From a virus: a DNA stretch of 64,000 nucleotides. The position numbers and the translations under genes are program-made. The number at the start of each line of letters is the position of its first letter. The stretch's first letter is position 1. Positions 17,538 through 63,528 of the stretch are shown in pieces. A model generated the notes under the pieces. The model was given only the letters and a program-made list of their open reading frames with translations, was not told the DNA's origin and searched no databases. Location of the stretch: positions 1 through 64,000 of the IMG/VR virus record IMGVR_UViG_3300005100_000002; one strand, 5' to 3'.

Positions 17538-17557
17538 TTATTTCGCCTCGTTATGTC

Positions 17558-18281: not shown

Positions 18282-18297
18282 GGCCCGGTCCTTTCTG

Positions 18298-18609: not shown

Positions 18610-18765
18610 GCTCGGTTATTGCCTTGGCGGCGCCTTTGTTAAAAAGCCAAGCCAGGGTCGTTTCAAGCCGCCTGATCTCTTCCAGGGTCAAGCTTAGGTT
18701 TAAATCATCGATAATTTTTTGTCGTGCCATTTCATGTGGTTGCATAATTCCCCCTTTGTTTATTC

Positions 18766-20442
18766 TTATGTGTTAGTATTAAAATAAAAATTAATCTCTT
18801 GGTCTTTACAGCTTAACCTTTTTGTTGATTTGTCAAAAAATAACTTCACGCCGCCTATTTCTCCAAATTCTCTGTTTTTCTTAATGAATAAAATAGCATC
18901 AGGATCTTGCTCCGATTTGTTTTCATCGGGAGGCCGCCATAAAACAAGAACATTGTCGGCAAGGTTTGTAATATCGCTTGAACCCTTTATATCGACCTTA
19001 TCGGGTTTATCCCTGTCCGAGGCTGTCTTCCTCGGATGAGCTACAAGATGGCAGTGAACCCTATACTTTCTTGTAAAAGTTAAAAGTTTTGATACAAATT
19101 CTTTTTGTGCCGCATACTCATCATGTTGTGATAATTTTACTCGCATTAAAGAATCTACGACAAAATGCTTAACCCCATATTTTCTAACGGCATATTCAAA
19201 GACATCAAAAATATGCCCTGACTCGATTTCTTCGGAAACATCTAAAATATACATTTTCTCATAGAGCCATTCAAAAACACTATTAATTTCAGCAGTAGTT
19301 GGATGTCTTTTACCGAGAGCCTGACACACAGCCCATCGCAAATAACGTGCAGGCCGCAATTCAAGGGATGCTATGCAAGTTTTTATATTTAACGATGTAA
19401 GATTCAAAAAAACCTGATTAAGCATGGTTGTCTTGCCCGATCCGTTTTGCCCCGACCATATTGTCAATTCGCCGGCCCTCCACCCCTTAAGGAAAAAGTC
19501 GATTCCCGGAAAGCCGGTCGGCGTTCCATCCAATATGTTTGGGTTTTCAAATAGATCAACGACCTCTTCATAATAATCGCTTGCCGCTGCTATGGTATTC
19601 GGAGGATATTCTGTGGCAGTATCAAAACAATCTTGCATGTTTTTTTTAGGCACTTTGTTTTTTAAACAATCCAATGCATCCTTGTGAGGAAAGGCCACGC
19701 TTTTGCACCGCCAATTACCAAGCCTTGGGATTAAAACGCTTACTGCATTATGGCCAGCCGCATCGTCATCCATACAGAGGTAGATATCTTCAAATTGTTC
19801 TAAAAAATTCCACTCATTCTCAATCCACCTGTGATCATTCACGCCGGAAGGCAATGAAGTAACGCCCATGAATCCATATTGATCTAATGCCATGCAATCG
19901 AATTCACCCTCAGTTATTATGAGTGTTTTCCCTATGATACTGTCCCGATTGAACAAGCAAGGCTCCGCATTTTTTTCCTGCCAGAATTTTTTATCTAGGG
20001 TTCTATACTTCACGTTTACTAAAGCCTTGTTTTTATAAAAAGGCAGACCGATTTCATTCTTTTTGTTTAAAAATATCTTGAACTTCGACAAAGTCTCTTT
20101 AGTAAAGCCACGATGTTGTAAAAATTGCATCGCTGTTTGGTTTATAGGCAAAGGCTTGGGGGTTGGCCGTGAATAAACTTTAGGCTGGATTGACGTATTG
20201 GTTTTCAAGAAAACCGGCTGATCTCCGAGCTTCCGCTGTAAATTATAAAACGATCCAGTTAAGCCGCAATTATTCAAACGCATACAATTCCAAGCACCAG
20301 ACTCAAGATTAATGGCAAATGTTTTTTCACCTTTATCGCCGCCATGGCAAAAAGGACAAAGCATGATAGCGTTTATACCGCTTGGCCTACTAACTTCTTT
20401 AAACTCAAACCCTTTATCTAAAAGATATTGCTTAACCTTCAT
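18766..20442 (-). CDS. bifunctional primase-helicase (T7 gp4-like)
   Basis: N-terminal zinc finger CPFCHGG...CMRLNNCG. TOPRIM ITEGEFDCMAL...DDDAAG. DnaB-type Walker A GQNGSGKTT with the C-terminal helicase motifs. Confidence 0.9.
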   Translation of the reverse strand: MKVKQYLLDKGFEFKEVSRPSGINAIMLCPFCHGGDKGEKTFAINLESGAWNCMRLNNCGLTGSFYNLQRKLGDQPVFLKTNTSIQPKVYSRPTPKPLPINQTAMQFLQHRGFTKETLSKFKIFLNKKNEIGLPFYKNKALVNVKYRTLDKKFWQEKNAEPCLFNRDSIIGKTLIITEGEFDCMALDQYGFMGVTSLPSGVNDHRWIENEWNFLEQFEDIYLCMDDDAAGHNAVSVLIPRLGNWRCKSVAFPHKDALDCLKNKVPKKNMQDCFDTATEYPPNTIAAASDYYEEVVDLFENPNILDGTPTGFPGIDFFLKGWRAGELTIWSGQNGSGKTTMLNQVFLNLTSLNIKTCIASLELRPARYLRWAVCQALGKRHPTTAEINSVFEWLYEKMYILDVSEEIESGHIFDVFEYAVRKYGVKHFVVDSLMRVKLSQHDEYAAQKEFVSKLLTFTRKYRVHCHLVAHPRKTASDRDKPDKVDIKGSSDITNLADNVLVLWRPPDENKSEQDPDAILFIKKNREFGEIGGVKLFFDKSTKRLSCKDQEINFYFNTNT

Positions 20443-21125
20443 TGCATGCCCTCATAGTTAATTGAAGGATTTACGTTTTGATCCTTTAGCGGAAAAAATC
20501 CATGCCAGCCCTTCATTATTGTTCGCTCAACAACCTTAACTGGATCGTCTCCAGAATCTTTCAGTTTTTTTAGTTTTTTTAAGTTCAACCTTTCTGCATA
20601 TGGAGTAAGTGGTTTTTTTATCCTGACACGATATTTTTTAAATTCGTCCCATATTTTTTTCGGCATCCAATCCGGCAAATCTATATATGTTTTTTCTTTC
20701 TTTTCTTTCTTATCCTTCTTGTCTGTGTACGCATCCGGAACGGAAGTGGCACGGTCGTGGCACGATTGCGTCTCGCTGCAAGAATTGCGTGGATCATATT
20801 CCTTGTAATTTAATACAGTTATGCGAGTTGTAACTGTTTCACTTACTGTGTCGATTTGGCGCATGTTTTGAAGTAGTTTTAGAAACCTGTGTGTTTTAGG
20901 GCGTCCCCAGCCCCATCGCTTTGCCCAAGTTCTGATACTCTTGAGAGACTCGCCATAATTACAAATTAATACTTTCATGCCAAAAACTACTTGTTGCGGC
21001 TCTTTTTTGTGTTGGGTTTCCCATAAAATGTCAATCCATGCCTCGGCTTTTGAAAAGACTCTTTTTTCTTTCCAGAAACGATGCTCTTGGAATTTGCGCC
21101 ATAAGGCAAAATAGCCCCTATCCAT
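20439..21125 (-). CDS. replication-associated DNA-binding protein (candidate)
   Basis: 228 aa, translationally coupled to the primase-helicase. wHTH-like N-terminus and a Lys-rich linker. Confidence 0.5.
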   Translation of the reverse strand: MDRGYFALWRKFQEHRFWKEKRVFSKAEAWIDILWETQHKKEPQQVVFGMKVLICNYGESLKSIRTWAKRWGWGRPKTHRFLKLLQNMRQIDTVSETVTTRITVLNYKEYDPRNSCSETQSCHDRATSVPDAYTDKKDKKEKKEKTYIDLPDWMPKKIWDEFKKYRVRIKKPLTPYAERLNLKKLKKLKDSGDDPVKVVERTIMKGWHGFFPLKDQNVNPSINYEGMQ

Positions 21126-21268
21126 TATTTTAGCCTATCTATTTTTTGCTGCATTTTGTCCATACGACAGCTTAACTTAAAATTAAACTTCCTCGATAAT
21201 GCATAAAATTCCAACACACCAAGGCAATAGGATAAATATAGTTTTAAAAAAAACCGTTTTAATCTCAT
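21125..21268 (-). CDS. small hypothetical protein (47 aa, below cutoff)
   Basis: MRLKRFFLKLYLSYCLGVLEFYALSRKF..., with AAGGGG upstream. TAATG overlap with the next gene. Confidence 0.3.
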   Translation of the reverse strand: MRLKRFFLKLYLSYCLGVLEFYALSRKFNFKLSCRMDKMQQKIDRLK

Positions 21269-21292
21269 AATATCAACCCCTTACAAACAGCT

Positions 21293-21359
21293 CAGGGCGT
21301 ATAGAAGGGAGGTCACAGCTCCACTGCAACGCCGGTGCGACATTGTCCTATACGCCCTG
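21293..21359. promoter_or_regulatory. 12-bp perfect inverted repeat stem-loop (ori or regulatory candidate)
   Basis: CAGGGCGTATAG (21293-21304) pairs with CTATACGCCCTG (21348-21359) across a 43-nt GC-rich loop. The surrounding intergenic region upstream of the replication genes is A/T-rich. Confidence 0.4.
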
Positions 21360-21433
21360 AATTATTTATAATTAATTGATTTCGAGTCCTGTGACAACTC
21401 ATAAAAGACCTACCTCACTTCTAACCCCTCATC

Positions 21434-21754
21434 TCACACCATCTCACTTTTGTCAAGATTTTTTGCCTCGGCCTCCAGCTCTTTTTCGATATCGGCGATA
21501 ACAGACAAAGATGCCTCCCACTCTAATGCCGTTAGCCAAACAAGTGCATCTTTCAAAAGCTTGTTTTTGCGATCAATCTCGGCTTTATATATTAACGCCT
21601 CAGTAGCCTTCTCATCTTGCTTAAGGTCAAGGCTATGTATATGGATTGATCCTGTCTCTTTGGCATATAGATCTTGCAGACAAGACAGCTCAATCATTTT
21701 TTGTTTAATCGATTGCTGTAGTGCTTTGAAGTCTTTATCATTCATTTCCGGCAA
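21434..21754 (-). CDS. hypothetical coiled-coil protein
   Basis: 106-aa ORF. Confidence 0.5.
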   Translation of the reverse strand: MPEMNDKDFKALQQSIKQKMIELSCLQDLYAKETGSIHIHSLDLKQDEKATEALIYKAEIDRKNKLLKDALVWLTALEWEASLSVIADIEKELEAEAKNLDKSEMV

Positions 21755-29275: not shown

Positions 29276-30052
29276 ATGGCGATAGAAAATCTTGTGGCGG
29301 TGAGTGGAAATATTATTTTGTGTGACAGCCAGGTTGTTGCTGATAAATTTGAGAAAAAACATGCTTATATTGTGCGACTTGTTCAAAAACTTATATCTGA
29401 TTTTGGAAAAATTAAGGGTGATTCCAAATCACCCTTAATTAGAGAAAAAGAAGGCGAATATCGAGGCAAAAAATATATTTATTATGAAATGGATAAAAAG
29501 TTTTTTGCCCATCTTGCAATGCGGTTTAGGGGCGAAAAAGCGTTTGAATGGCAATGCAAATTTATTGATGCTTTTTTCCACATGGAGCAGCAACTTCTCG
29601 AACAAAGAGTTCAACAAAAAAATATTGAATGGCAACGAGAACGTGAACAAGGCAAGGAAATTCGACTCGATCTAACCGATATTATTCAAACATTTATTCA
29701 GTATTCAAGAGATCAAGGCGCAAGCGAAAAAGGCGCCAACATGTATTATTCCAACATAACACAAATGGAATATAAAGCGCTTGGCCTAATCGAGAAGAAC
29801 GAAAAAGTGAATAAAGGCCTTCGCAACACATTAGATATTATGGATTTGTACAGCCTGCTTTCAGCCGAAAGGGTAGCTCGTAAAGCATTGTCAGACGGCA
29901 TGAAGCAAGAACTACATTACAAAGATATATTTCAAATAGCCAAAAAGGATGTAATGCAACTTGCCGATATTATGGTAATTAAACCAAGAATTAAATGGAA
30001 CGAAAATATTGAAAAAAGTGTGATAATTGCACAAGGAGATATCGCCTCATGA
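29276..30052 (+). CDS. Rha-family phage regulatory protein
   Basis: The N-terminus ILCDSQVVADKFEKKHAYIVRLVQKLI fits the Rha (pRha) pattern. Confidence 0.65.
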   Translation: MAIENLVAVSGNIILCDSQVVADKFEKKHAYIVRLVQKLISDFGKIKGDSKSPLIREKEGEYRGKKYIYYEMDKKFFAHLAMRFRGEKAFEWQCKFIDAFFHMEQQLLEQRVQQKNIEWQREREQGKEIRLDLTDIIQTFIQYSRDQGASEKGANMYYSNITQMEYKALGLIEKNEKVNKGLRNTLDIMDLYSLLSAERVARKALSDGMKQELHYKDIFQIAKKDVMQLADIMVIKPRIKWNENIEKSVIIAQGDIAS

Positions 30053-32361
30053 AAATACTTAGACTACGACTTAAGAATTTTGTCGGAATACAGAAGGGAC
30101 TAAATCTATCAGAAATAGACATCGAGCTTGGCTCGCTCAGCGGGCTTGTCTCTTTGAGCGGAAAAAATGGTTCGGGCAAGTCAACTTTTTTAGATTGCTG
30201 CACTCCGTACGCCCGCCTTGCCAGCCGCAAGGGCACACTTCAGCAACACACGTACGGCAGAGATGCAGAAAAGGAGCTGTCCTTCGAGTTCCAAGGGAAT
30301 ACCTATCGAACCCTAATCAAGATTGACGCAGAAGGCACCAGGTCTCCAGAAGGCTATATCTGGAAGAACAAAAGCAAGAAGAGCGAGGTCGATAGCAAGA
30401 TATCCAATTATAATCGTTACATTGTAGAATTATTCGGGACCCCGGAACTATTTTTTGCCTCAGTCTTCTGTAGTCAAGGCGCGACAAAGATATCGGATCT
30501 TACGACTGGTGAACTAAAAAAGCTTTTTTCAGAATTTCTCCGATTGCAGCGCTATATAAACTACGAAGACACCTCCAAACAATGCAACAACCTCCTTACC
30601 AGTCGTGCAAGCAGCCTCAACCGTGACATCGAAAACCTGAGAATCTTAACCGACGGTTACGCTGAAGCAGGCGCATTGTTGGCTTGTGCTAAAGGAAAAA
30701 AGGCAGCTCTTGAACAAAACCTCCTTGAACTATCAAAGAACCTTGAAAAATCCGAAGCCGAGTTAGCCACGATCCGGGCAGATATCCAAAAAAACGAAAT
30801 GATCCAGGCGAAACTTGCCGGATTGCAGGCAACGCAGGATCGTCTGACTACCGAGATAGAAGAAGATCAGAAGCAATTGGAATTTGAGTTATTAGAACCA
30901 CGAACAAAATATCGCAAGCTGGTGATTGACATTGCCAATTTGGATATCCTTTTGGCAAACGAAACGGACATTAGAGAAGCAGCAACACTGGCTGAAGCAT
31001 TAAAGAAAGATATTGCTAAAACAGAAGGCAACCTTAAGGACGCAGGCCGGTTATATCTCGCTACAAGAGGTGCTGTGTCTGAAAAAGAAGCAGAGATAGC
31101 AGAGTTTCATTTAGAGCATGAACGACTGATCGGTAAAACCAAGAGAGATAGGAATGCATTAAAAATAAAACTGGAGCATGCACAACTAAAACTGGTAGAT
31201 CTGGACAAACGAGATCCCGATTGCGTATCAAAAACGTGTTCATTTATCTTAGGCGCATTGTCTGCCCAGAAAGATATCCCGGAATTAGAGCTTCAAATAA
31301 CGAAAAGCATTGAGGGCATCGCTAAAGCAGAAAGGGCATACTCTAACACTCGGAACCAGCTTAATGCCGACATGAGGGCTCTCAAAGACACGGAATCCGT
31401 TCAGCAGGCAGAAAAAGAAGAGATTGAAGCCAAAATAGCCAAGTTTGAAAACAAGCTCTCGCAAATTGAAACTTTGGCGGACGAACTCCCCGGGGTGGAA
31501 ACAGCCCTTGTCCGAAAAACAGATCTTGAAAAACGTCAAGTCGAGAACATCGCTGCCGGTAAAAAGACAAAAGATTTTTGGGAAAAGCGGATTATTGAGA
31601 AAAAAGGTCAATATTATGCGACAATTACAATAGTCGAAGAGAAAAAAGCCGAAATAAAGATGATGGCTGAAGAAATGTTTGGAATTGTAGGACAAGACAT
31701 CTCCAGCTTTAAAACTGCTATCACCGAACGAACAAGCGAAGTCGCTGATAAGATTGCCGAGATCTCCCGGCACGAACAGGACGTTGCCCGGAAAGAACAG
31801 GCTCAAAATGAGCTTATGGATAAAACAGCAAAAAGAGAACTTGTTGTCAATGAAGCGAGCGACTGGCTGTATCTCAAAAATGCGTGTTCTGCGAAAGAGT
31901 TGCGGGCATTAGAAATTGATTCGGTGCTCCCATCAATAGCAGCTTATGCAAATGATCTGCTTATTAGAACATTTGGGACTCAATATACAGTACGATTCCA
32001 GACACAAGACGAAGAAACCGGGCGTGAAATCTTAGACATTATCGTTATCAGAGAAGATGGCTCGGAAGTACCGATAGAAAACCTGTCGGGAGGTCAAAAA
32101 GTGTGGCTGTTAAGCGCCTTAAGGCTTTCATTAACACTTATCAGTCAGGAAAAAAGCGGCAAGAGTTTCCAGACTGGCTTTGCGGACGAGTCTGACGGCT
32201 CATTGGATGTCGGCCATGCTATAGAATACGTTCAAATGTATCGGGCGTTTATGAAGGTCGGTGGATTTGAGAACTTCTATTTTATAAGTCATAAGCCGGA
32301 TTGTGTGTCGCTTAGCGATCATGTCCTGAAATTTGAGAAGGGTGGAATTACAATTGATTGA
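30049..32361 (+). CDS. sbcC: SbcC/Rad50-family ATPase
   Basis: Walker A LSGKNGSGKST, a long central coiled coil, the signature LSGGQ, and Walker B/D-loop FADESDGSLD. Confidence 0.85.
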   Translation: MKILRLRLKNFVGIQKGLNLSEIDIELGSLSGLVSLSGKNGSGKSTFLDCCTPYARLASRKGTLQQHTYGRDAEKELSFEFQGNTYRTLIKIDAEGTRSPEGYIWKNKSKKSEVDSKISNYNRYIVELFGTPELFFASVFCSQGATKISDLTTGELKKLFSEFLRLQRYINYEDTSKQCNNLLTSRASSLNRDIENLRILTDGYAEAGALLACAKGKKAALEQNLLELSKNLEKSEAELATIRADIQKNEMIQAKLAGLQATQDRLTTEIEEDQKQLEFELLEPRTKYRKLVIDIANLDILLANETDIREAATLAEALKKDIAKTEGNLKDAGRLYLATRGAVSEKEAEIAEFHLEHERLIGKTKRDRNALKIKLEHAQLKLVDLDKRDPDCVSKTCSFILGALSAQKDIPELELQITKSIEGIAKAERAYSNTRNQLNADMRALKDTESVQQAEKEEIEAKIAKFENKLSQIETLADELPGVETALVRKTDLEKRQVENIAAGKKTKDFWEKRIIEKKGQYYATITIVEEKKAEIKMMAEEMFGIVGQDISSFKTAITERTSEVADKIAEISRHEQDVARKEQAQNELMDKTAKRELVVNEASDWLYLKNACSAKELRALEIDSVLPSIAAYANDLLIRTFGTQYTVRFQTQDEETGREILDIIVIREDGSEVPIENLSGGQKVWLLSALRLSLTLISQEKSGKSFQTGFADESDGSLDVGHAIEYVQMYRAFMKVGGFENFYFISHKPDCVSLSDHVLKFEKGGITID

Positions 32362-45629: not shown

Positions 45630-48600
45630 TTAATCGGCAACTAAAAACTTACGAAATCGCTCATTTTGTGTTTTTGCGATAAACGACATCCTGGTGTCAA
45701 TGGTCTCTATCAAATCCCGCTTCTTGTCAGACGACAAAGCCTTAGACCCCATGACGACCGCCTTCCTCTTCCGCAGCTTGCCAAGCGCTAAAGATTGTTT
45801 CCTGAATATTTTCGCGAAAACCTTGACGCCTTTGGTTTTTTCATCAAACTTGATAGCTTCATCTCGATCCGTCTTGATTAAAACCTTAAAGCCCTGCTCA
45901 GCTTCGTTAGCCCTTTGCAGGTTATCATAAAAGTTCGTTATGTCTTTGCCAGCGCTGCCAATAGGTTCTCTGGAAATAAACCCTCTTATGCCAGGCATCA
46001 CACGATACCAGTCTTTTGTAACTTCCGGCACATCCCCTGTCTCAAACAATGGATCTATGATATCAAGGCCAAGCTTACCCAAACCGCCCGACCAACCCCT
46101 AACCCAATTTTCCATCTTTAATGGCGAAAGATTAGTCACTTTGCCAATCTCTCTAAGAACACTACTGGTATACTGGTGCGCTCTTTGGCCGGGAGGCAAT
46201 CGTTTTATGGTTTCACTTTCAATAGGCCGCTTCATAAAGAAGCTCCAGTTTGTCATATTTTCGATTAAAGCTAAAGGCAATGTAGGAATAACCCCAGGCA
46301 CAACGCCTTCCACTATGGAATGAGCTATTGTTTCCAATTCTTTGGGATCGTTGAGGACAATATAGTCAAAAATCCTTTCCGGTAAAGAACCAAATATAAG
46401 CCCAAGCTCAAAAGGCTTCGGCAGGGATATTATGGGCATGTCTTTATCAATAACAATATTCCAAAAGAAGTTTTTCCTCCAACCAGGTAAAGAGTTGTAC
46501 CGTTCTTTTCTTTCATCATCACTATTATTAAACAGCCATAAAGCAATCGAAGGTATCGTTATCCCAAGCACCAGCCGGAGTAATGTCCGTCCCGGATGCT
46601 TTTGTAATTTCCTGCGCAATATGTCAGTCCCCTGTACATTAGCATTCCAGAAAGCCGTTATTTGATTAATCCGACGCTCCTCCCCTATTCTGCGAAAGTC
46701 CAGGGTGCTTTCTCTTGCCGCTGCCGTCGCTTCGGATGTTGTAGCACCCTTATCCTTGGCTCGCTTAAAAACTCCCAACCTGGTGGACTTCTCCATAACC
46801 TCAGAGGCTATCCGAAGGTACTCTATAGGATTGTATGTCTTTAATCCTTTCTTAAAGCCTAAGATGTCCCTGGCGGTCAGATTCAGGGTAGTCCTGTCCA
46901 TGCTGGTAAAATATGACTGTTCGCCACCACCTGCTTTGAATTCCTGATAAAGGTCGCCCTTTTTCATTAGTTCAAAGAAGCCTTTGCCAAAGTCAATAAA
47001 TGGTATATAGCCATATTTGGAATACACCATGGCTGAAAATTGATCCCTTACCGGATTGCGCATGATAAATTCAGCGGTCAAGGTAGCGCCTGCACGAAGT
47101 AGTTTTGCAGGGCCGGATAAGATCTTTATGGCCATGCTCATTTCTTGAGGTGAATAATAATCTATAGCCTTGTGGACATCCGGAGGAACTCGCCAGTAAT
47201 GCTTAACCCCATCCACAGGAACTATAATAGTGCCCTTGGGCTGAATTGGCGACCGGATTGATACCTTAGTCCCACCTCTTGGGCCAGGCCGTTCAGGCAC
47301 GTCTTTCGTTAGATATTGCGGCTGTACCTCTTCAATAACTTCGGCAAGGTCAGGTGTTAAATCCTTTAGTTCAACTATCTTTTTATTGAGCTTTATTGTT
47401 TCCAACAGCTTAATGGTTTTATAGGTATTGGACACAGACGATTCAATGGTAGGTATTTTCCTGAGTTCAGATCCCTTTATCTTTTTAAGAGGATCTTTGC
47501 CGCCATGAACCTGCTCGCCAACCGTATCCATCTCCCGCAAAAACGAAGCATAAAACTCTGACTCAGGTTTTGCCTTTATTCCATCATAAACCTTTTTAGA
47601 CAACCAGCCTTCTTCTACCAATAATTTCAAAAGGGTATCGTCATATTTGCGCTGCTCCTTTGAAACATCCCGGAGCTTTTTAATATTATCCCCATATTTC
47701 TTTTCAAGGGCTTTTACCACCTGCGACGATGCTTCTATATCTGTCCCTTTGATGTCCGGTCTAAACGTGGCCAGGGCAATATCCCTTTCAGCTATCCTGA
47801 GCGTCTCATAATCCTCGTATTCCTGGGGAGACAAGTCTTTGACTATTTCCTTAAGAGATTGAGAACCTTCGATATATTCAGGCTTACCACCTTCATCATA
47901 TCTGTGGGGACCTTTGCCGGCAACAAACACTTCGACAATCCCGCCCTTGCCCCAAACCTTATTTATCTGATCTTGTATCCTTTGGATAACCTTTGGATCT
48001 TTTGCTTTGGCCGCCAACCGTATTGCAGGGAATTCAGCAAAAACGAATTTGGTATAAACTTTGGCGATAAAATCCTTGGCGACTTGCTTGGTGAGTTGTA
48101 GTTTTTTAGGTTCAAAAGCTATATGTTTTTCTTTATAGGTTTTGATAACGTCTTCATCTGCCGGCAACGGTTTTTCTATGGGCGCTTTTACCGGAGCTTT
48201 GTACTTCTTGAGTAGTTCTTTATAATCTGTCGGTGGTTTCTCTTTTGCAAATAATGGCATGCCTTCAACAAGAGCGGCCCGTTTTAGGGCTGGGGTTATG
48301 GTGAAAGATTGTTGGGTTGTTGTTTCGGATACCCGCTCTATTTTACCACCAAACAGCTCAGCGACAGCATTGCTCTGCATTGCGACTGCGTTGCTAAAAG
48401 ATGTTCCGCTCTCTATTTCTTTTTGTAATGATTTCAATTCATTCGCCACCTGAACTCTGTTAACTGCGAACATTTGACGTTCCCCAGTTATAGGACTTTC
48501 AAAAACACTTGGGCCGTCTTTTTTGGCAACCACAAGAGATTTTTTCACATCCTCTATTGTATAATCATCACCAATATATTCTCTTTTTGATTGCCACCCA

Positions 48601-51600
48601 GTTGTGTCAATTTCAGTAGCCCCGACTTCCGCTCCATCTTTTTTCCCAAATTTCTTGAGATATTGAGGTATCATGCGGTCGTATAGTGCGTATGTCCAAA
48701 CTCCGCCCGTTTTGAGATCAAGCCCTGAGAAAATAGCAGTTCCCTTATCATCATCCCCAAACTTGCTTAATGCCTTATCTGTTAAGTCTTTACCTACATG
48801 CCCCTGCAACTCATCCACTGAAAGATTTGATTTTGCTATAACCTTTTCACCATCATAGTCGAAAGCATCTATCCTGTAGCCAGATTTCTTCGTATACAAA
48901 ATAGTTACGCTTTCGAGGTGCTTGCTTAGGTCGTATCTGTCAGCCGTTTGCTGTCCCGTAACCCAAGAAACCTTGTCCATCCCTTGTTCGGCTGCCATGC
49001 GGATAATGCGTTTTAACACTACTTCGTGCCAGTTCTTTTTGAATGGTATGTCAGGAACAGCTTCTCGTGTCGCACCATCAAGAGCTTCTCTTTTGGTCGG
49101 TGCGGCAAATTGCTGAATACCATTTTCGTTTAAAACCTCCCATTTATTCTCACCAAGTTCAGGAATAAATTCTTGAATTGTCCACTCAGCAGGTAATATT
49201 CCCCGATACCCCTTTTTTCTGCCCTCCAATGCAAAATCGCTTTGTAGCTCTTCAATGAATAAAATCTTATTGCCATCGGCGTCCGTTCTTTCGTTTGTCC
49301 GGACGTGGGCGAATACGTTTGGTTCGTCCCAATGGGGAGATACAAACCCCGCATCACCTTCTTTTTCAATTTGTTCGTATCTGTTTTTTAGATATTCATA
49401 TCGTGCTAATTCAGCAACGGTAAGTTTTTTATCGCCTTGCCTAACGTAAGAATTTAATTTTGCATATTCACTATATTCTTTTTTTGAAAGAAGTGGTTTT
49501 TTGCCAGGCAGCGTAAACAAAAGCTCACGATAGTTTTCTTTTTCGCCTGGGAGCTGGTATTGTGCAAATTTGGTAGTGTCGTATTTTTTAATTTTAGTTA
49601 AAGCATAATCTCTTGCTTCTTTTTCTGTTTTGTATTTAGAAACAGGCAGTTGCAACACATTGCCAGGAACATTGAAAATATGAAATGAAACATTCCCTTG
49701 TTTTTCTACTCCCTGATAATCTAAATCTTCTTCAGTATAAAAAACATCCCCACTCTTCACAACCTCCTCAACCACAACCTGATTTTCTCGAAGCAACCCC
49801 ACCAGTTCATCCCGCACAACAACCTTCTTACCCTCAAGCATTGCCTCAACATCCATCCACTCAAGCTCTGCCGCTTTAATCCCAGGCTGTTTCCTAAGCC
49901 ATGGCATCACCGCTGAAGCTTGCATCTTAGCAGGCATTTTGTCTTGAACGGTTTTAATAACTTGTGAGTAGAAGCGTTCAGCCTGTTTAATTGCCTGATA
50001 TCCAGGGACTCGTAAGGCCCTATCAATACCAACTCCTGTCCCTGGCTTGCCTATCTCAACATAACTCCTTGCATCATATATTAATTGACAAAGCTCTGCG
50101 TCTGCCATTTTTAACGAAGGCATGATTTTTCGCATAAACCTTCTAATAACCGCCACCACCTTGTTTACCCAATTGGATTCAGGGTTCGTCACAGCCTCTC
50201 TTGACAGCCATTCTTCAGCAGCCAGAACCCTTCCTTTATATGTGGCGGTATCAAAGCCATAGCTATCAGCTATCGTCTGGATCGCCGGTTCTTTGGCGGA
50301 ATAAACCTTATCCATAATGTCGCCAAATTCTTTGCCAAGGACTGCCCGCAAGCCAAAGTGACCAAAAGACTCATGCAGTAAAGTCTTAACGGCATCTTCA
50401 GGAGATGCTTGATTATCAGCTACGATATAAACCTTGCCACGAAAATATACGCCATCAACAATCTGGCCTTCGCTGTATTTTAATATTTCTTTGGGTAGTT
50501 CTGATTGAGACTGAACGACTTCGACTATAGGCGCATTCTTCCACCGAGCAGTTATTTTATTAATATGGCCTTGCAGTTCAGATGCTACAGAAGCTTCACT
50601 TACCAATGGATAAGGTTTGCGTATTAGAAAAAGAGGCTTTATTTCAGTAAGCTCTTCAAAATGTTTAGCTGCTTTCGCATAAGCATCGGTAGCATCCAGC
50701 AAATCTTGTTCCATTTGATTGCCGGAGCGTTTAATCCCTGTTTCTTCAGCTATCTCTTTAAGCGTCGTCTTGCCGGCTTTATGTTCATCATAATAAGCCT
50801 GAAGCTCTCCCATTTCATCATGTGTGTGTTGCACCATAACTCTTGCATACTCTATGTCTTGAGATTCCATTTTCTCAACGGCTTCAGCGATATAATCTTT
50901 ATCGGCCACAGATTTAATTTTATTCCTAACTGCTTCAGATATATCTTGAGAAAGTAGCCAATTCTGGAAAGGATTTAACAACACTGCGCCGGTCAAGTCT
51001 CTTACTTCAGTATCGGCTACTTCCTCAAAAATTCTATCTATATCTTCCGGCTTTAATTTTTCAGGAGCTACGTCTAATATTTTTTTGTACTTAGCTTCCG
51101 GAACAGCCTTTTTTGCAGGTGCCTTGGGCTTAAATTTCTTACTAATTATTGTTGAAGGGAATGCACTTTCGACACGTTTTTGAAAATCAAACAATTCGCT
51201 GCCTATAATTTCAAAGGTCCCATCATTAGGAACCTCGAATTTAAAAACAGTGTCAATTTGCTGTAGAGGATTAATGCGCATTTTTAACAGCTCTCTTGCC
51301 CTTTCTACACTTTCAACCTCAGCTTCTTTTAGGCTACCTTCGATGGCTTTATCAATCTCGGTCAATAAATATGTCTTTTGTTGCTTAGGCGTTACCGCGG
51401 CTTCTTCTTTTTTGGTAAGATCAATGGTTATTTCTTTGCCTTCTGGGGTTGGAGCTACTTCGATCTTTTCTTCTATCACTTTTGGCTCTTCAGTCTTTAT
51501 CTCTACCATAGCTCTTTTTCTATATCGTCCACCACGCTCAAGGCCTGTAACCATGTTCGCCGGCATCTCTATAGGATTGCTTGCACCGTCAGGCAAAATA

Positions 51601-54600
51601 TCCACTGTGTCGGCATCTTTATGCACTTTAACGACATCTCCATAGAATACCTGTCCACCACTATTTTCAAATTTAACATAGTCATCTACATAGACTTTTA
51701 TGGATTCTTTGGCTTTTGGCTCGACTGGCTTTTCTTTTTCAGGAGTTACTTCGATTTTTTCTTTTTTAACTTTAGGTTTTACTCCAGGAACGACAGGTTT
51801 AATAATCTTGGCCTTTTTAACCGGAGCAAGCTTGATCTTTTCTTTTTTTTCGGGAATTGCTTTAATTTTCTTTTTTTCTATTTTCGGAGCAACCTCTGGT
51901 ATAGGCTTGGCCTCGATCTCTTCCCTAACGGCCTCTGGTGGCTTCGGCTTGGCAACATCAGGTGCTATTGGCTTTGCGAGCTTCGCTATTTCCTTTTCGG
52001 CAATTTCACCTTCACGCCTACGACCTTCCCCGGTATCGACTTCACGAAGTCCTGGAGGCCGCTCTCCACGTCTGGCACGTAATCCTTCGGCTTCTCTTTC
52101 TTCTTTGTGTTTTCTGAGGAGTCGATCTGCTTCTGTTTCTTCCCTGTGAACACCATAGCTTACCCCCAAACCTTTATATGTATATTTTTCGCCTTTATCA
52201 TTTGTGAATTCAAGCTCAGCCCCGGACAACTTTTCGTTCAGTTTATCTGCCAGCGCTTCTGCTTCTTTTTCTGTTTTTGCACGGATAATGAATTCATCGC
52301 CACTGATATGATAGCTGTCGGGAGTAACTTCAGAAGCCGCCTTAGCTACAGTCTGAAGCAACTCATCGCCTGCCGCGTGCCCGGCAAAGTCATTGACATA
52401 TTTTAGAGAATCAACATCTATATATGCTTTGGGCTTAGTGATCCCTTTTTCGAGATCAACGGCTTCAGCTTCCTGATAGGCACGTTTGTTCGGAATCCTT
52501 GTAACTGGATTAATAAGGAGTTCCGCCCTCAGCTCTTCTTGTGACATCTCGGATATCAATTTTCTGCGAGCGATATCTTTTCTGCGTTCGATCTTAGTCG
52601 GTTTCTTAATTTCCGGCTCCACATCTACGGCCGGCTTCTTTATTTTGGAATATGGCCTCGTCTGTCTCTTCTCGACAAATGTTTTCAGATCATCCATAGA
52701 GACTTCGGTTATATCCCCAAGCCCTTTCCAGCCTTTTTCATAATTAGCGAGATACCCCTCGCTTGCAGCCTCAAGAGAAGGATAGCCGACCATAGCCTTA
52801 TGTTCATCAAACTTGCCGGTCTCAGGGTCTATCTGATCTACGATATAAGCCCTATCACCTTCTTTGCGTTCACCTGCATTAACAAATACGTCTATCTGTT
52901 CACCGTCTTTTCCCGCTGATCGCTTGAAGTATCCATAATGACCACCAGACATCGTGATCGACCATTTTTTTCCTTCGGGGGAAACGCCTGATCTCTTTGA
53001 ACCTTCTGGATTCTCGATTGAGATATCGAAACCTTGAACTTTGATATGAGCTTTTTTATAGTTTCCTGCTTCAATTTGAGCTTCGGTCGGGGACGCATCA
53101 ACTTCTCGAACTTGAGCTTCTATCTTTGCCGGGTCCTCTACATTCAACCTGCCATGAACCAAATTAAATAAATCCGGCCTTTCTTTTACAAGCGTTTCGG
53201 CTTCAGCTATTCTTGCTTTTCTTTCAACATCTCGCATGCCCGGTTCTATTAAATCATTCCACTGAGTAGCTGCCGTTTGCGCTTCCTCAACGGTCATTCC
53301 TTTCAGTAACCGTTTTTGATCAGGGGTCGTTTTTAAGCCCTTGCCCTCTTTGTCGACTTCTACAGGTATCGCTATTTTCTCAGGCTTATATCCACGGATT
53401 AAGAACTTATTGATATCCGGCTCTATTTCAGCTTTGGCCTTGATTCGCTTTTCTTCTGTTATTTTTTCCTCAAACACTTCGGCAGATATTTCGGCAGGTC
53501 TTCTTGGGGCTTCTTCAAAAACCTCTGCGGCCTCCTTTATCCTCTCTTCAGAGGTTAATGCCTTCCCGGTTAAAAGCTCCTTCGCGGTGATGCCTTTTTC
53601 GCCTTCATCAAGAAGAGTATCACGGGCAGCAGATATCGGTTTTTCGACCGGCTCGACCTCTTCTGCAACGAACATCTCGGTTATTTGTGTTGCAAGGGCG
53701 GGATCTTGAGTGGCTATTTTTTCAATCACAGGCGCCATATCATCTATGGTTACTTCGCCACTTTTGATGTCTTCAGCTAATTGCCCCGATTCAACAGCGT
53801 CTCTAAATATTCCGGTTTCTTCTGAAGTTGTTTGTGTAAAATCTGCATTTATATCAATCGGAACGCCTGAATCAATAAGGGGCTCAACCATATCGGCCCA
53901 TGATTGTCGTAATTCTTTGTCGTCAATATTTTTTGCAATATACTCAGCTGCCTTTTTTCTTTCTTCTGGATTCTCACTGTTTAATTGATTTTTTACACTA
54001 TTTCTTTGCAGGCTTGTTATCCCTTGTGCTCCTACCCCAAAAAGCACACTCATGGTAAGGGCCGGAATAATAGATTCAACCGCTGCTTCTTGCCATGCTC
54101 CTTCAGGAAGAAGCCCTATCTCTTCATCTACCTTGGCGCCCAAAGCCCCCTGAATCATTTCGGTCGGGACTTCATTCAATAAAGCATTTTTCGTAAGATT
54201 TTTTGCAAAAGTTTTTACCGGAGTCTTTAAAAGTTCTTTGGCTGTAGTCTTTAAAGGCTGTGCCGCAAGCTTGCCCCAACCAAAAGTTACCATACCTATA
54301 AGGTTTGAGACGGTCTCTATCCCGCCTTCAATAATACCTTGTTTAATTGCGGCTCCATGTGCTGTTTTTTCATCTATGCCTTGTTGGACATATTCTTCTT
54401 TTTTCTGCCCATATACGCCAAGCCCGTGAATTCCAAGCGTGGCGCCTATGCCTCCAACAAGCCCTCCGATTACTGTACCTGGTGGCCCGAAAACGCTTCC
54501 GGCAAGAGCTCCAGCCCCAACCCCAACCCCTAATGGCGCAAGCGATGGGATTGTGCTTTCGAGGCCGCCCATTATCCCGCGTCTTACAAAGCCTTCCTCT

Positions 54601-55028
54601 TCGACACCAGGGACAGCGGGCTTCATTATACCAACGTCTCTCATGCCTTCTGAGACATCAATTATTTTCTGGCCAACCTTTTCGACAACATCTATCCCGC
54701 CTTCAGGATCAAGCGTTTTGATTGCGTGACCTGCTAATTCCCCAAGGGCGGGGATACCACGCGCAACTGCGGCAACTCCGGCTTTTATGACACCAGGTTC
54801 TTTCTCTTTGGCATCTTTTTTTCCAATCGCAACATAATCATCATCAGTCATTCCCTGTGTATAAATATCAGGATGACGATAGCCTTCTAACCTTTTTTGG
54901 ACAATAGCTCTTCCTGCATCCCGGTATTTTTTGGACATCTCGTCCTTCTTGAACTCGCTTGCAAATACCGATTGCCCTGAGAATGTACGTTTTGGTTTTT
55001 CTTTTGTTTCGTAATCAAAAAATGCCAT
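45630..55028 (-). CDS. giant multidomain virion (ejected, polyvalent-type) protein, 3132 aa
   Basis: Single uninterrupted ORF. It contains N-terminal Gly-rich TM segments, a pyrophosphatase-like beta-barrel segment (AGNYKKAHIKVQGFDISIENPEGSKRSG...DGEQIDVFV), a GGDEF-like domain, a Lys/Pro/Glu linker, a zincin HESFGH domain and an ...ILFIEELQSDF... domain. Located in the virion gene block. Confidence 0.85.
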   Translation of the reverse strand: MAFFDYETKEKPKRTFSGQSVFASEFKKDEMSKKYRDAGRAIVQKRLEGYRHPDIYTQGMTDDDYVAIGKKDAKEKEPGVIKAGVAAVARGIPALGELAGHAIKTLDPEGGIDVVEKVGQKIIDVSEGMRDVGIMKPAVPGVEEEGFVRRGIMGGLESTIPSLAPLGVGVGAGALAGSVFGPPGTVIGGLVGGIGATLGIHGLGVYGQKKEEYVQQGIDEKTAHGAAIKQGIIEGGIETVSNLIGMVTFGWGKLAAQPLKTTAKELLKTPVKTFAKNLTKNALLNEVPTEMIQGALGAKVDEEIGLLPEGAWQEAAVESIIPALTMSVLFGVGAQGITSLQRNSVKNQLNSENPEERKKAAEYIAKNIDDKELRQSWADMVEPLIDSGVPIDINADFTQTTSEETGIFRDAVESGQLAEDIKSGEVTIDDMAPVIEKIATQDPALATQITEMFVAEEVEPVEKPISAARDTLLDEGEKGITAKELLTGKALTSEERIKEAAEVFEEAPRRPAEISAEVFEEKITEEKRIKAKAEIEPDINKFLIRGYKPEKIAIPVEVDKEGKGLKTTPDQKRLLKGMTVEEAQTAATQWNDLIEPGMRDVERKARIAEAETLVKERPDLFNLVHGRLNVEDPAKIEAQVREVDASPTEAQIEAGNYKKAHIKVQGFDISIENPEGSKRSGVSPEGKKWSITMSGGHYGYFKRSAGKDGEQIDVFVNAGERKEGDRAYIVDQIDPETGKFDEHKAMVGYPSLEAASEGYLANYEKGWKGLGDITEVSMDDLKTFVEKRQTRPYSKIKKPAVDVEPEIKKPTKIERRKDIARRKLISEMSQEELRAELLINPVTRIPNKRAYQEAEAVDLEKGITKPKAYIDVDSLKYVNDFAGHAAGDELLQTVAKAASEVTPDSYHISGDEFIIRAKTEKEAEALADKLNEKLSGAELEFTNDKGEKYTYKGLGVSYGVHREETEADRLLRKHKEEREAEGLRARRGERPPGLREVDTGEGRRREGEIAEKEIAKLAKPIAPDVAKPKPPEAVREEIEAKPIPEVAPKIEKKKIKAIPEKKEKIKLAPVKKAKIIKPVVPGVKPKVKKEKIEVTPEKEKPVEPKAKESIKVYVDDYVKFENSGGQVFYGDVVKVHKDADTVDILPDGASNPIEMPANMVTGLERGGRYRKRAMVEIKTEEPKVIEEKIEVAPTPEGKEITIDLTKKEEAAVTPKQQKTYLLTEIDKAIEGSLKEAEVESVERARELLKMRINPLQQIDTVFKFEVPNDGTFEIIGSELFDFQKRVESAFPSTIISKKFKPKAPAKKAVPEAKYKKILDVAPEKLKPEDIDRIFEEVADTEVRDLTGAVLLNPFQNWLLSQDISEAVRNKIKSVADKDYIAEAVEKMESQDIEYARVMVQHTHDEMGELQAYYDEHKAGKTTLKEIAEETGIKRSGNQMEQDLLDATDAYAKAAKHFEELTEIKPLFLIRKPYPLVSEASVASELQGHINKITARWKNAPIVEVVQSQSELPKEILKYSEGQIVDGVYFRGKVYIVADNQASPEDAVKTLLHESFGHFGLRAVLGKEFGDIMDKVYSAKEPAIQTIADSYGFDTATYKGRVLAAEEWLSREAVTNPESNWVNKVVAVIRRFMRKIMPSLKMADAELCQLIYDARSYVEIGKPGTGVGIDRALRVPGYQAIKQAERFYSQVIKTVQDKMPAKMQASAVMPWLRKQPGIKAAELEWMDVEAMLEGKKVVVRDELVGLLRENQVVVEEVVKSGDVFYTEEDLDYQGVEKQGNVSFHIFNVPGNVLQLPVSKYKTEKEARDYALTKIKKYDTTKFAQYQLPGEKENYRELLFTLPGKKPLLSKKEYSEYAKLNSYVRQGDKKLTVAELARYEYLKNRYEQIEKEGDAGFVSPHWDEPNVFAHVRTNERTDADGNKILFIEELQSDFALEGRKKGYRGILPAEWTIQEFIPELGENKWEVLNENGIQQFAAPTKREALDGATREAVPDIPFKKNWHEVVLKRIIRMAAEQGMDKVSWVTGQQTADRYDLSKHLESVTILYTKKSGYRIDAFDYDGEKVIAKSNLSVDELQGHVGKDLTDKALSKFGDDDKGTAIFSGLDLKTGGVWTYALYDRMIPQYLKKFGKKDGAEVGATEIDTTGWQSKREYIGDDYTIEDVKKSLVVAKKDGPSVFESPITGERQMFAVNRVQVANELKSLQKEIESGTSFSNAVAMQSNAVAELFGGKIERVSETTTQQSFTITPALKRAALVEGMPLFAKEKPPTDYKELLKKYKAPVKAPIEKPLPADEDVIKTYKEKHIAFEPKKLQLTKQVAKDFIAKVYTKFVFAEFPAIRLAAKAKDPKVIQRIQDQINKVWGKGGIVEVFVAGKGPHRYDEGGKPEYIEGSQSLKEIVKDLSPQEYEDYETLRIAERDIALATFRPDIKGTDIEASSQVVKALEKKYGDNIKKLRDVSKEQRKYDDTLLKLLVEEGWLSKKVYDGIKAKPESEFYASFLREMDTVGEQVHGGKDPLKKIKGSELRKIPTIESSVSNTYKTIKLLETIKLNKKIVELKDLTPDLAEVIEEVQPQYLTKDVPERPGPRGGTKVSIRSPIQPKGTIIVPVDGVKHYWRVPPDVHKAIDYYSPQEMSMAIKILSGPAKLLRAGATLTAEFIMRNPVRDQFSAMVYSKYGYIPFIDFGKGFFELMKKGDLYQEFKAGGGEQSYFTSMDRTTLNLTARDILGFKKGLKTYNPIEYLRIASEVMEKSTRLGVFKRAKDKGATTSEATAAARESTLDFRRIGEERRINQITAFWNANVQGTDILRRKLQKHPGRTLLRLVLGITIPSIALWLFNNSDDERKERYNSLPGWRKNFFWNIVIDKDMPIISLPKPFELGLIFGSLPERIFDYIVLNDPKELETIAHSIVEGVVPGVIPTLPLALIENMTNWSFFMKRPIESETIKRLPPGQRAHQYTSSVLREIGKVTNLSPLKMENWVRGWSGGLGKLGLDIIDPLFETGDVPEVTKDWYRVMPGIRGFISREPIGSAGKDITNFYDNLQRANEAEQGFKVLIKTDRDEAIKFDEKTKGVKVFAKIFRKQSLALGKLRKRKAVVMGSKALSSDKKRDLIETIDTRMSFIAKTQNERFRKFLVAD

Positions 55029-61680: not shown

Positions 61681-63528
61681 TTAAAGCTCAGGCTCCTCGT
61701 ATCTCAATGGTGTACAAATTTCAAATCGTTCAACCGCCCCTGTTATATACGCAGACATCATAGGCAAATCAGTATCAATATCGCCCGTAATATCATGATA
61801 ACCATCCAAAGCAGCCGTTATCATCGGCAAGGTTGCAGCGAGCGCCGCCGAATCCCCAACCACACCAACCACCAAAGCAGTCATTGCCGGCAAGGTCGCA
61901 TCTATTTCAGCAAGAACGTTAGTTGTGCCTGTGATCGAAGCTGTCATTGTAGGCAGCGTTGCTTCGATCTCGCCGACTATACCGACTTTCCCCTCAATGG
62001 CTGCTGACATTACCGGCAAGGTTGCTGCAATAATAGTACCCCCGCCGAGGATATCGGCTGACATTACCGGCAAGGCGGCATCAATGAGTCCGCCACCGCC
62101 GCCCAGGAAATCGGCTGTCATCATGGGCAGGGTGGCATCAATATCGCACGGAAAGGCTGTTGAGACGGTTGTTATTTCTGAGGAAGATTCTACGTTTGAA
62201 GCATCTATGTTTTTAATTTTATCTAAGGACGGTGATGTTACTTGCGTTAAGCATGAGACATCGGAAGCGTTTATGTCTTTAGTCACAAGGTCAAGCGCTG
62301 GAGCTGTTACTTGTGTTCCACATGAAACGTCATCAAGGGTGCCTGGGACAAATGAAAGAGAAGGCGATGTTACTTCTGTCGAGCATTCAACGTTATCAGA
62401 GGCTAAACCTGGGGTCGTTTCCGCAGCACTAAACGCAACCAGCCCATCCCAATTACTATAATAAGTTGCTTTTATCCAGGCTGCTGATCGTGCCGTATGT
62501 GCAATGCTGCATTCATCAATAACACTATTACCATAAAAATCATTTGAACCAGAGTCCCTTGCCACTCTAACAGGAAGATTGTTGGCTAAAATCGCAGAGT
62601 AGTCTCCACTAGTAGTATATGTCCCTACGGAAACTCCATCTAAATAAAGTAGCAACCTGGCTGTTCCGGTTAAATCTTTATCGTAGGTGGCGCACACATC
62701 GTGCCAGCCTTCAGCAACGTTTTCCAGATACTTGCCCAACACATTACTAGGCCCATTATAAATATTTACCTTGACAGCATTAGTCAATTGACCGGATCGA
62801 TCATCTGTCCATATATCATAACCTCCGCCAGATGAAGCAGCGTCACTTTTAGAAAGGAGCATCCCAAGAACATTATCGATTCTGGTGTGATCCATATTGA
62901 AAGTAGCGTGCAGGGTTAGGTAATCTATAATATCAAAATCGGCATGATCGGGCTCTTCGAGGTAATCACTACCTCCGTCAAAATCAATAGCTTTTCCGAT
63001 CTTACCATCAACCAGATCGGCAGAAGTCATAGAACCATTTGGTGACATATGGTGAGCGTTGGAGGTAGAATCTTTTATGGCATTTGCGGGATCTCCATTT
63101 GGATCTTGCGCCAAATGCCAAACGCCTTTAAAATTAGAATCCCATACCGATTGTGCAGCAGCATCAGTTGTGTCGCCTACATATGTAGTGTTGTCGGCAT
63201 GGGCAACATCATAATAGATAAACAGCTCTGTGGCCGACCCGGAAGCCACTGACGGGACTTTTACCCAAAGCCATGCTGCTGAGTTTGCATGATCCCATCG
63301 CTCGATCTCGACATAGCATTCTGTAGTCCCATCAGAGGTGGTTATGGCGATCTTTTTTCGGTTAGCATCAGCGGTCAGTTCAGTAAAAATATCCGTGAGG
63401 TCCGCATAACTGGTGCCTGAACTTGCTGAAATCTTTATAAGAATAGGAAAATTAGACAGAACCGCATCAACATTGGTATTGCTGATCGTAATTTTACGCC
63501 TGTTTTCCCAAGTTCCCAACCAACCCAT
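61681..63528 (-). CDS. DUF2341/LamG-type (concanavalin-like) virion protein with a C-terminal peptide-repeat array
   Basis: The N-terminus WENRRKITISNTNVDAVLSNFPILIKI... and the Trp-rich lectin-like middle are consistent with DUF2341 plus LamG. The last ~150 aa hold seven ATLPxM(T/S)A repeats. Confidence 0.6.
   Translation of the reverse strand: MGWLGTWENRRKITISNTNVDAVLSNFPILIKISASSGTSYADLTDIFTELTADANRKKIAITTSDGTTECYVEIERWDHANSAAWLWVKVPSVASGSATELFIYYDVAHADNTTYVGDTTDAAAQSVWDSNFKGVWHLAQDPNGDPANAIKDSTSNAHHMSPNGSMTSADLVDGKIGKAIDFDGGSDYLEEPDHADFDIIDYLTLHATFNMDHTRIDNVLGMLLSKSDAASSGGGYDIWTDDRSGQLTNAVKVNIYNGPSNVLGKYLENVAEGWHDVCATYDKDLTGTARLLLYLDGVSVGTYTTSGDYSAILANNLPVRVARDSGSNDFYGNSVIDECSIAHTARSAAWIKATYYSNWDGLVAFSAAETTPGLASDNVECSTEVTSPSLSFVPGTLDDVSCGTQVTAPALDLVTKDINASDVSCLTQVTSPSLDKIKNIDASNVESSSEITTVSTAFPCDIDATLPMMTADFLGGGGGLIDAALPVMSADILGGGTIIAATLPVMSAAIEGKVGIVGEIEATLPTMTASITGTTNVLAEIDATLPAMTALVVGVVGDSAALAATLPMITAALDGYHDITGDIDTDLPMMSAYITGAVERFEICTPLRYEEPEL

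Follow-up and report, generated by a model that had tools for sequence, protein, structure and literature searches.

Why would a phage build a domain of the kind that produces cyclic di-GMP (c-di-GMP), a second messenger of bacteria, into a giant structural protein, and what would such a domain do in the host? The question is raised by IMG/VR virus record IMGVR_UViG_3300005100_000002, of which positions 1 to 64,000 (the window) were analysed. On its minus strand the window encodes, in one open reading frame (ORF), a polyvalent virion protein of 3132 amino acids (aa), in which an initial annotation had recognised a GGDEF-type nucleotide cyclase domain. The domain and its context were confirmed, whereas its novelty had been overstated and the suggested mimicry of defence messengers found no specific support in this protein. 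The reading preferred here, held with moderate confidence, is that of a competent diguanylate cyclase specific for guanosine triphosphate (GTP) and free of feedback inhibition, which is coupled to a pyrophosphatase, delivered with the virion and raises c-di-GMP in the host.

Identity and active site of the GGDEF domain

The minus-strand translation of positions 52134-52526, corresponding to residues 835-965 of the 3132-aa ORF, reads AELLINPVTRIPNKRAY...AYIDVDSLKYVNDFAGHAAGDELL...HISGDEFIIRA, with the three motifs starting at residues 840, 868 and 907. The cyclase signature is thus present in the order described by the initial annotation, including the SGDEF variant of the active-site motif. 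A Pfam search, which the same annotation had proposed as a check, assigned residues 841-973 to positions 5-146 of the 161 positions of the GGDEF profile PF00990 (49 bits, E 7.7e-13; gathering score 23.8). A phmmer search of PDB sequences gave 51 matches, essentially all of them GGDEF-domain proteins and nearly all annotated as diguanylate cyclases (best E 8e-7). An AlphaFold2 model of residues 807-1003, calculated with 24 homologues as input, reached a mean predicted local distance difference test (pLDDT) score of 93.3 and a predicted template modelling (pTM) score of 0.84. When this model was compared with the PDB by Foldseek, the top 50 matches were all GGDEF domains (E 1.6e-8, probability 1.00). 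In the model, the SGDEF motif lies on a beta-hairpin between strands 905-909 and 912-916, and two helices (812-827 and 830-837) resembling a short stalk precede the domain. The match is far above chance, and the GGDEF domain in the giant protein is real. The base composition of the GGDEF segment is the same as that of the rest of the giant gene.

A palm domain of the Cas10/mCpol type was considered as a non-cyclase alternative and rejected. Pfam, PDB sequence and PDB structure matches all pointed to GGDEF, the top 50 PDB structures are all diguanylate cyclases, and the xGDEF motif is kept, while the GGDEF motif has largely been lost in mCpol palm domains (PMC12657218).

Residues were mapped onto the numbering of PleD by HMMER alignments and a family alignment. 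D871 corresponds to PleD D327 (metal binding), K876 to K332 (catalysis), N879 and D888 to N335 and D344 (guanine recognition), and K975 and R984 to the phosphate-binding pair K442 and R446. The hairpin S909-G-D-E-F913 takes the place of the active-site hairpin G368-G-E-E-F372, with D911/E912 equivalent to E370/E371. All residues required for catalysis and guanine recognition are present, and they are near-invariant both in 81 divergent viral sequences and in 24 homologues from the database. In the viral alignment, D871, K876 and N879 are each conserved in 81 of 81 sequences, D911 and E912 in 80 and D888 in 69; the stretch G910, D911, E912 is kept in 78-80. Position 909 is Ser in 58 of these relatives and Gly in 18, Ser being the majority residue. 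The domain shares with PleD, WspR, DgcZ and DosC the fold, the metal-, phosphate- and guanine-binding residues and the hairpin motif. It differs from these canonical cyclases in having no sensory or receiver domain, no RxxD site, Ser in place of the first Gly and an extended C-terminal Arg-rich motif, and in being embedded in a 3132-aa virion protein.

The absence of the RxxD inhibitory site (I-site), likewise noted in the initial annotation, was confirmed by the alignment, in which E900-V-T-P903 stands in register with PleD R359-D362. An in-register RxxD was found in only 1 of the 81 viral relatives. The site marks the subset of GGDEF cyclases under feedback inhibition and not the family as a whole. 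Since the I-site is missing, c-di-GMP would not be expected to switch the enzyme off.

In characterized enzymes, Asp at the position of D888 confers GTP specificity, whereas Ser at this position is found in the Hypr enzymes, which produce cyclic GMP-AMP (cGAMP) and require a GGDEF rather than a GGEEF motif; with the mutation S348D, a Hypr enzyme behaves purely as a diguanylate cyclase (PMC6456294). A Hypr-type specificity was rejected for the window protein, in which D888 is Asp and not Ser or Thr. Because this selectivity residue is the canonical Asp, GTP is the predicted substrate and c-di-GMP the predicted product. As a whole, the sequence predicts an active, GTP-specific, c-di-GMP-making cyclase without feedback inhibition, with the Ser variant of the hairpin as a caveat. 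In 12 of the 81 viral clade members the position of residue 888 is occupied by Thr (IMG/VR loci L075-L077, L082 and L040) or Asn (L012, L016, L048, L051, L065, L068 and L084), always together with an xGDEF motif. As Thr resembles the Ser of the Hypr signature, these relatives, as distinct from the window protein, may form other cyclic dinucleotides.

A pyrophosphatase partner and a viral clade

The most informative context of the GGDEF domain, missed by the initial annotation, is an adjoining family-I-type inorganic pyrophosphatase domain (InPase), which was identified by PF18823 (168.5 bits, E 9e-50) and lies 55 residues upstream of the GGDEF match. Diguanylate cyclases release two molecules of pyrophosphate (PPi) per c-di-GMP. 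Among the IMG/VR giant ORFs, 17 contain both domains, in 15 cases within 200 aa of each other, with InPase first in nine and GGDEF first in eight. When GGDEF and InPase were placed at random in this set, none of 10,000 placements reached 15 adjacent pairs. InPase is present in 43 of the 150 best cluster representatives of the clade described below, the window's own protein counted. Without that protein, 42 representatives have both domains and 34 have them within 200 aa (InPase first in 20, GGDEF first in 22). In a neighbour-joining tree of the GGDEF domain, proteins with the pairing turn up in scattered places. From the adjacency statistics, the occurrence of both orders and the scatter over the tree, it follows that the unit was assembled or rearranged more than once, and the pairing suggests a cyclase combined with a PPi-removal unit. 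An AlphaFold2 model of both domains showed two confident domains joined by a disordered linker (pTM 0.58). A Foldseek search with this two-domain model returned cyclases for all of the top 50 matches and thus gave no independent confirmation of the InPase fold. In 2017, Iyer et al. had proposed in general terms that InPase may clear PPi for nucleotidyltransferases, with no link to GGDEF in the main text (PMC5512222).

The InPase domain also bears on the location of the protein. A portal protein of known structure has a matching domain at its C-terminal end (PDB 9b41_L, E 2e-22). Chain L of this entry is the 765-aa phage portal gp19, which carries a polyvalent-type InPase at its C-terminus (residues 635-756). 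PDB 9b41 is therefore direct structural evidence, from another phage, that an InPase domain can reside inside capsids. In addition, 512 phage records of GenBank contain InPase, and among the proteins concerned are some with annotations as virion structural, tail, portal or minor head protein; in Cellulophaga phage phiST it is part of a protein annotated as virion structural.

An exhaustive profile search of 1.84 billion cluster representatives at a threshold of E <= 1e-30 delimited a GGDEF clade of 1,530 representatives. Among the 150 best, 116 reach a length of 1000 aa or more and 84 one of 2000 aa or more (median 2176 aa), and the GGDEF domain typically starts about a quarter along the protein (median 0.27 of the length). 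A scan of IMG/VR gave 90 relatives and 76 loci with a full-length match, 62 of the latter in ORFs of at least 1000 aa (maximum 5997 aa). The clade is marked by its flanks, with two helices on the N-terminal side (ERR...EM[ST]xEE[LM]) and the motif K..R..G-x-RA..RGE-x-P on the C-terminal side. In a scan of 185,579 prokaryotic species, each represented by one genome, about 8 close relatives were found, the other matches being ordinary GGDEF proteins; because of this scarcity, the clade is regarded as overwhelmingly viral.

The initial annotation did not count GGDEF among the standard components of such giant proteins. This does not hold: GGDEF domains in polyvalent proteins were listed as 'not very widespread' by Iyer, Burroughs, Anand, de Souza and Aravind (2017, J Bacteriol, PMC5512222), who suggested that they interfere with nucleotide responses of the host or act against rival elements, and who also defined InPase and LPD38 as phage-type polyvalent domains. 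They thereby anticipated both functions put forward in the initial annotation as well as the general model preferred here. As in their polyvalent proteins, the domain studied here lies inside a giant multi-domain protein of a phage structural module that is predicted to be injected with the DNA. Their example from Acetonema longum (WP_004096050.1) differs in having SWI2/SNF2, methyltransferase, zincin and ART domains. Furthermore, GGDEF-InPase adjacency was not discussed in 2017, whereas here it is non-random, and the clade comprises 1,530 representatives. The idea of a GGDEF domain in an injected protein is thus already published, and the window adds an example and family-level detail rather than the concept. 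The present analysis contributes the extent of the clade and its bias towards viruses, the finding that the feedback site is systematically missing and that InPase pairing is not random, and the Asn and Thr selectivity variants in 12 of 81 relatives. A 2023 review counted few phage-borne c-di-GMP components (PMC10333796); the 1,530 representatives, with giant proteins predominant among the best 150, suggest that this clade is neither small nor rare. Full-text literature searches found no paper testing a virion-delivered cyclase.

The nearest relatives in GenBank phages are stand-alone GGDEF proteins of about 156 aa from YuA-like Pseudomonas and Bordetella siphophages (YuA gp44 with 156 aa, MP1412, CN1, CN2 and LK3), which are 31-36% identical to the window domain. 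They belong to the same clade, have the same C-terminal motif and likewise no I-site, and the protein of Bordetella phage CN1 is a structural match (template modelling score 0.82, normalised to the target). They differ in being encoded by small separate early or non-structural genes of temperate siphophages and in being neither virion proteins nor fused to InPase. YuA gp44 has been annotated with a 'putative role in host cell conversion' since 2008, and lysogens of Bordetella phage LK3 form more biofilm, an observation that is correlative only (PMC8471281).

The nearest database homologues (45-49% identical) are P0010 (L001, 10001-10942) and P0012 (L002/L088, 10001-10849), the latter from a deltaproteobacterial metagenome-assembled genome. 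Both are stand-alone genes for 280-320 aa with the same ERRKD...EMTPEEMR linker as the window protein. They lie in ordinary bacterial chromosome (rpoD, dnaG, his genes) with adjoining response-regulator genes, and their N-termini resemble a truncated receiver domain (LLVADDDKAI...). By their sequence and surroundings they may be domesticated copies of the phage cassette. In L026 (7769-17254), a relative of 3162 aa, the GGDEF domain (residues 769-888) is directly followed by a PBECR5 RNase-like domain and the protein has the same LPD38 C-terminus; because GGDEF is paired with PBECR5 here, the cyclase cassette appears to be shuffled among different effector neighbours. P0089, a 571-aa protein with GGDEF and InPase (L168, ENA contig_61203, about 10001-21716), was rejected as a minimal two-domain protein and not used, as it is probably part of a giant polyvalent gene that frameshifts in the assembly have fragmented: the ORFs that follow it are numerous and short and contain parts of LPD1 and of a helicase.

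Proposed virion delivery and action in the host

In line with its description as a giant virion protein in the initial annotation, the gene lies inside a minus-strand block in which the upstream genes match virion-structural PHROGs, while a tail-fibre-like gene and an endolysin gene are found downstream. The C-terminal part of about 750 residues comprises LPD38 and a match to phrog_9854 (E 2e-86) and shares 29% identity with gp44 of Pelagibacter podophage HTVC034P (795 aligned positions). The gp44 gene has an internal-virion-protein-B-like gene on one side and the tail fibre gene on the other, a position that corresponds to that of T7 gp15/gp16. Because the C-terminal third matches podophage proteins at the gene position of internal virion proteins, ejection of the giant protein into the host is plausible. 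Glycine-zipper-like or hydrophobic helices are predicted at both ends, which suggests a fit to a membrane-inserting ejection protein; the N-terminal hydrophobic region weakly matches the tail-associated lysin region phrog_1047. Delivery of this kind would resemble that of the T4 Alt ADP-ribosyltransferase, the N4 virion RNA polymerase and T7 gp16, enzymes that are packaged and ejected ahead of or with the DNA. These have other catalytic activities, and no sequence similarity to solved ejection proteins was detected for the C-terminal module of the giant protein.

A natural comparator without the cassette is a 2684-aa protein of the cultured Achromobacter phage CF418P1. It has InPase (44% identical), the HExxH region described below (26%) and a C-terminal LPD38-type module (25%) in the same order, and the phage has a related terminase. 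As the same scaffold occurs here without GGDEF, the cyclase looks like an exchangeable cassette. The CF418P1 gene (L169, 6505-14559; OQ817832.1, WNO49116.1) is annotated as 'putative portal', which is probably wrong, the product really being a polyvalent protein.

On this basis a sequence of events can be proposed that leads from enzyme activity through packaging and ejection to a physiological effect. Residues ~812-996 would form a catalytically competent cyclase of the phage-centred GGDEF clade. Diguanylate cyclases act as dimers, in which two GTP-loaded GGDEF domains are brought together; accordingly, two such domains carrying one GTP each would have to meet to convert 2 GTP into c-di-GMP and 2 PPi. 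The adjoining InPase would hydrolyse the PPi, lifting product inhibition and making the reaction irreversible. That the fusion to a pyrophosphatase recurs and that the feedback site is systematically missing point to a cyclase module that is unregulated by design. This module would lie in the N-terminal third, the effector part, of an internal virion or ejection protein of the podovirus type with membrane-active ends. Most likely it would be carried in the capsid and reach the cytoplasm with the DNA, and it would probably also be active in the producing cell late in infection.

A rough estimate indicates what such an enzyme could achieve. In a 1-fL cell, 1 uM corresponds to about 600 molecules. 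Each virion contains between a few and about a dozen copies of an internal virion protein, and cyclases turn over about once per second or less. The resulting hundreds of product molecules per minute compare with roughly a million GTP molecules per cell. A few enzyme copies might therefore bring c-di-GMP into the signalling range within minutes and shift the host towards a sessile, high-c-di-GMP state. Possible gains for the phage are a shutdown of motility or pili, a block of (receptor-dependent) superinfection, and a disturbance of nucleotide-based host responses or immunity. A pre-made enzyme of this kind, if it works and is delivered, would let the phage set a global second messenger of bacteria without gene expression, and from the very first seconds of an infection.

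Several observations count against this proposal. The first motif residue is Ser (S909) and not the canonical Gly, and Ser at this position abolished the activity of cyclase VCA0965, whereas ECA3270 is a natural SGDEF enzyme with cyclase activity (PMC3974145). No dedicated dimerisation domain was identified in the giant protein. The InPase pairing is not obligatory, being found in only ~29% of the 150 best representatives, and the two-domain model did not predict a fixed interface between InPase and GGDEF. Residues 2380-3132 gave no match to a solved ejection protein in a phmmer search of the PDB at E <= 10, and packaging is deduced from homology and gene order only. On the side of the response, a regular-expression search of the window found a single SGDEF and no EAL, PilZ or MshEN-type motif, and Rfam at gathering thresholds gave no match in the window, hence no c-di-GMP riboswitch.

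A rather unlikely alternative is that the cyclase is active and is not delivered at entry, the giant protein or an N-terminal part cleaved from it working only late in the producing cell, e.g. in lysis timing, superinfection exclusion or the biofilm matrix. The gene is part of the late structural block, so that its product builds up in the cytoplasm ahead of packaging, non-structural genes encode stand-alone relatives such as YuA gp44, and the HExxH region downstream of the cyclase would fit processing. Such processing is known from DdrB of phage P1, which is cleaved before packaging and of which the packaged half is not known (PMC5512222). Against an exclusively late role, the InPase partner is physically present in virions of other phages, as in the 9b41 portal, and GGDEF is kept at a conserved relative position in the giant structural-module proteins of relatives. 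Moreover, late action and delivery at entry can coexist.

It is unlikely that the enzyme is active with another product, such as 3'3'-cGAMP, c-di-AMP or linear or oligomeric nucleotides, by which messengers of defence systems would be mimicked, saturated or decoyed. This possibility draws on the cGAMP-forming enzymes with Ser at the selectivity position and their need for GGDEF instead of GGEEF (PMC6456294), on the nearly constant xGDEF motif of the clade, on its Asn and Thr variants, and on the interference with host nucleotide responses raised by Iyer et al. (PMC5512222). The window protein itself has the canonical, GTP-specifying residues D888 and N879, and the effect of S348D (PMC6456294) points in the same direction; the variants are other members of the clade. 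Hence, the mimicry of defence messengers suggested by the initial annotation received no specific support for this protein.

Equally doubtful is a non-enzymatic role, in which the domain would bind nucleotides or serve a structural purpose, e.g. by sensing GTP or c-di-GMP in the manner of FimX, PelD and LapD with their degenerate GGDEF domains. Degeneracy affects about one in four cellular GGDEF proteins (PMC3974145), and the non-canonical S909 and the lack of a recognised dimerisation domain would be in line with such a role. However, degenerate receptor-type domains lose the metal- and substrate-binding residues, all of which are kept and near-invariant here, and the I-site by which receptor-type domains bind c-di-GMP is absent.

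A further idea to which a low probability is given is that the clade consists of injected generators of cyclic dinucleotides whose role is counter-defence and not a change in host lifestyle. c-di-GMP, or other dinucleotides in the case of the Asn and Thr variants, would flood the cell and desensitise or mis-trigger nucleotide-sensing immune effectors, or would restore the 'decoy' nucleotides of Panoptes and similar guard systems; systems of this type, which monitor cyclic nucleotides, have been described (PMC12657218).

Very improbable is a GTP-draining device that starves GTP-dependent processes or defences of the host: an enzyme freed from product inhibition and made irreversible by its pyrophosphatase would be suited to this, whereas the output estimated above reaches the signalling level and not GTP depletion, for which reason signalling is favoured over nucleotide starvation.

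Layout of the giant gene and other features of the window

The features of the giant gene are compiled in the table below together with the terminase gene. Several unrelated domains are combined in one polypeptide, namely InPase, GGDEF and LPD38 along with the HExxH region and recurrent uncharacterised modules. The complete GGDEF unit of the clade consists of the N-terminal helices (ERRKD..RRK..EMSxEEL), the GGDEF core, the C-terminal K975..G982-x-R984..RGERP motif and a last strand. It is followed by a linker in which Lys, Glu and Pro make up a fraction of 0.57 (residues 1001-1100).

Features of the giant virion protein gene and position of the terminase gene in the window
Feature	Residues	Position (nt)	Strand	Basis or remark
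Giant polyvalent virion protein gene	1-3132	45630..55028	-	uninterrupted ORF, 3132 aa; Pfam: InPase, GGDEF, LPD38
N-terminal glycine-zipper-like hydrophobic segments	163-204 and 315-338	54015..54542	-	Kyte-Doolittle scan
InPase (family-I-type inorganic pyrophosphatase of polyvalent proteins)	649-785	52674..53084	-	PF18823
Full clade-specific GGDEF unit	812-996	52041..52595	-	flanks kept in homologues; secondary structure from AlphaFold2 model
GGDEF domain as Pfam match	841-973	52110..52508	-	PF00990; PDB phmmer; AlphaFold2; Foldseek
Active-site hairpin S909-G-D-E-F913	909-913	52290..52304	-	regular-expression match at nt 52304; conservation in 81 viral relatives
Lys/Pro/Glu-rich low-complexity linker 3' of GGDEF unit	~1000-1110	51699..52031	-	composition
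HExxH zincin-like region, motif H1552-E-S-F-G-H1557		49929..50591	-	motif position; candidate processing peptidase
Recurrent uncharacterised module	1700-2300	48129..49931	-	matched by phmmer in 10 giant ORFs of IMG/VR and in 28 of the 150 representatives
C-terminal virion-anchoring or ejection module	2390-3108	45705..47861	-	LPD38, phrog_9854, two hydrophobic helices
LPD38	2841-3005	46014..46508	-	PF18857, E 4.5e-32
C-terminal hydrophobic segments	2815-2833 and 2904-2922	46263-46586	-	hydrophobicity scan
Terminase large subunit		9394-11013		57% identical to EBPR podovirus 1 TerL

No Pfam model matched the HExxH region, even at E <= 1. Among the giant ORFs of IMG/VR that bear GGDEF, 13 have this segment, as do 32 of the 150 representatives and Achromobacter phage CF418P1. 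By its motif it may be a divergent processing peptidase that could cut the giant protein into pieces; in phage polyvalent proteins, zincin-like metallopeptidases with such a role are frequent but do not occur in all of them (PMC5512222). For the recurrent module at residues 1700-2300, neither a Pfam match nor a PDB sequence match was obtained, and PDB sequence searches with residues 1480-2342 and 2380-3132 gave no meaningful match. Pfam searches with eight sub-segments of the giant protein added LPD38 alone to the domains of the first scan.

Near-identical DNA to the window was not found among GenBank phages. In the clustered protein collection, P0039 is identical to the giant protein of the window and forms a singleton cluster from a JGI/IMG contig of 69,039 nt.

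A search for tRNA genes in the window was negative. On the plus strand, a 466-aa ORF (13755-15155) combines an N6/N4 DNA methylase domain (E 1.5e-44) with an Mrr-type or inactive restriction-endonuclease-like domain, and a 770-aa ORF for an SMC/RecF/AAA_23-like ATPase (30049-32361) is part of a plus-strand block presumably concerned with replication or early functions. On the minus strand, the structural block includes a 615-aa ORF (61681-63528) with a weak match to DUF2341, within which a 54-nt tandem repeat is located (62003-62143; 2.6 copies, 76% matches).

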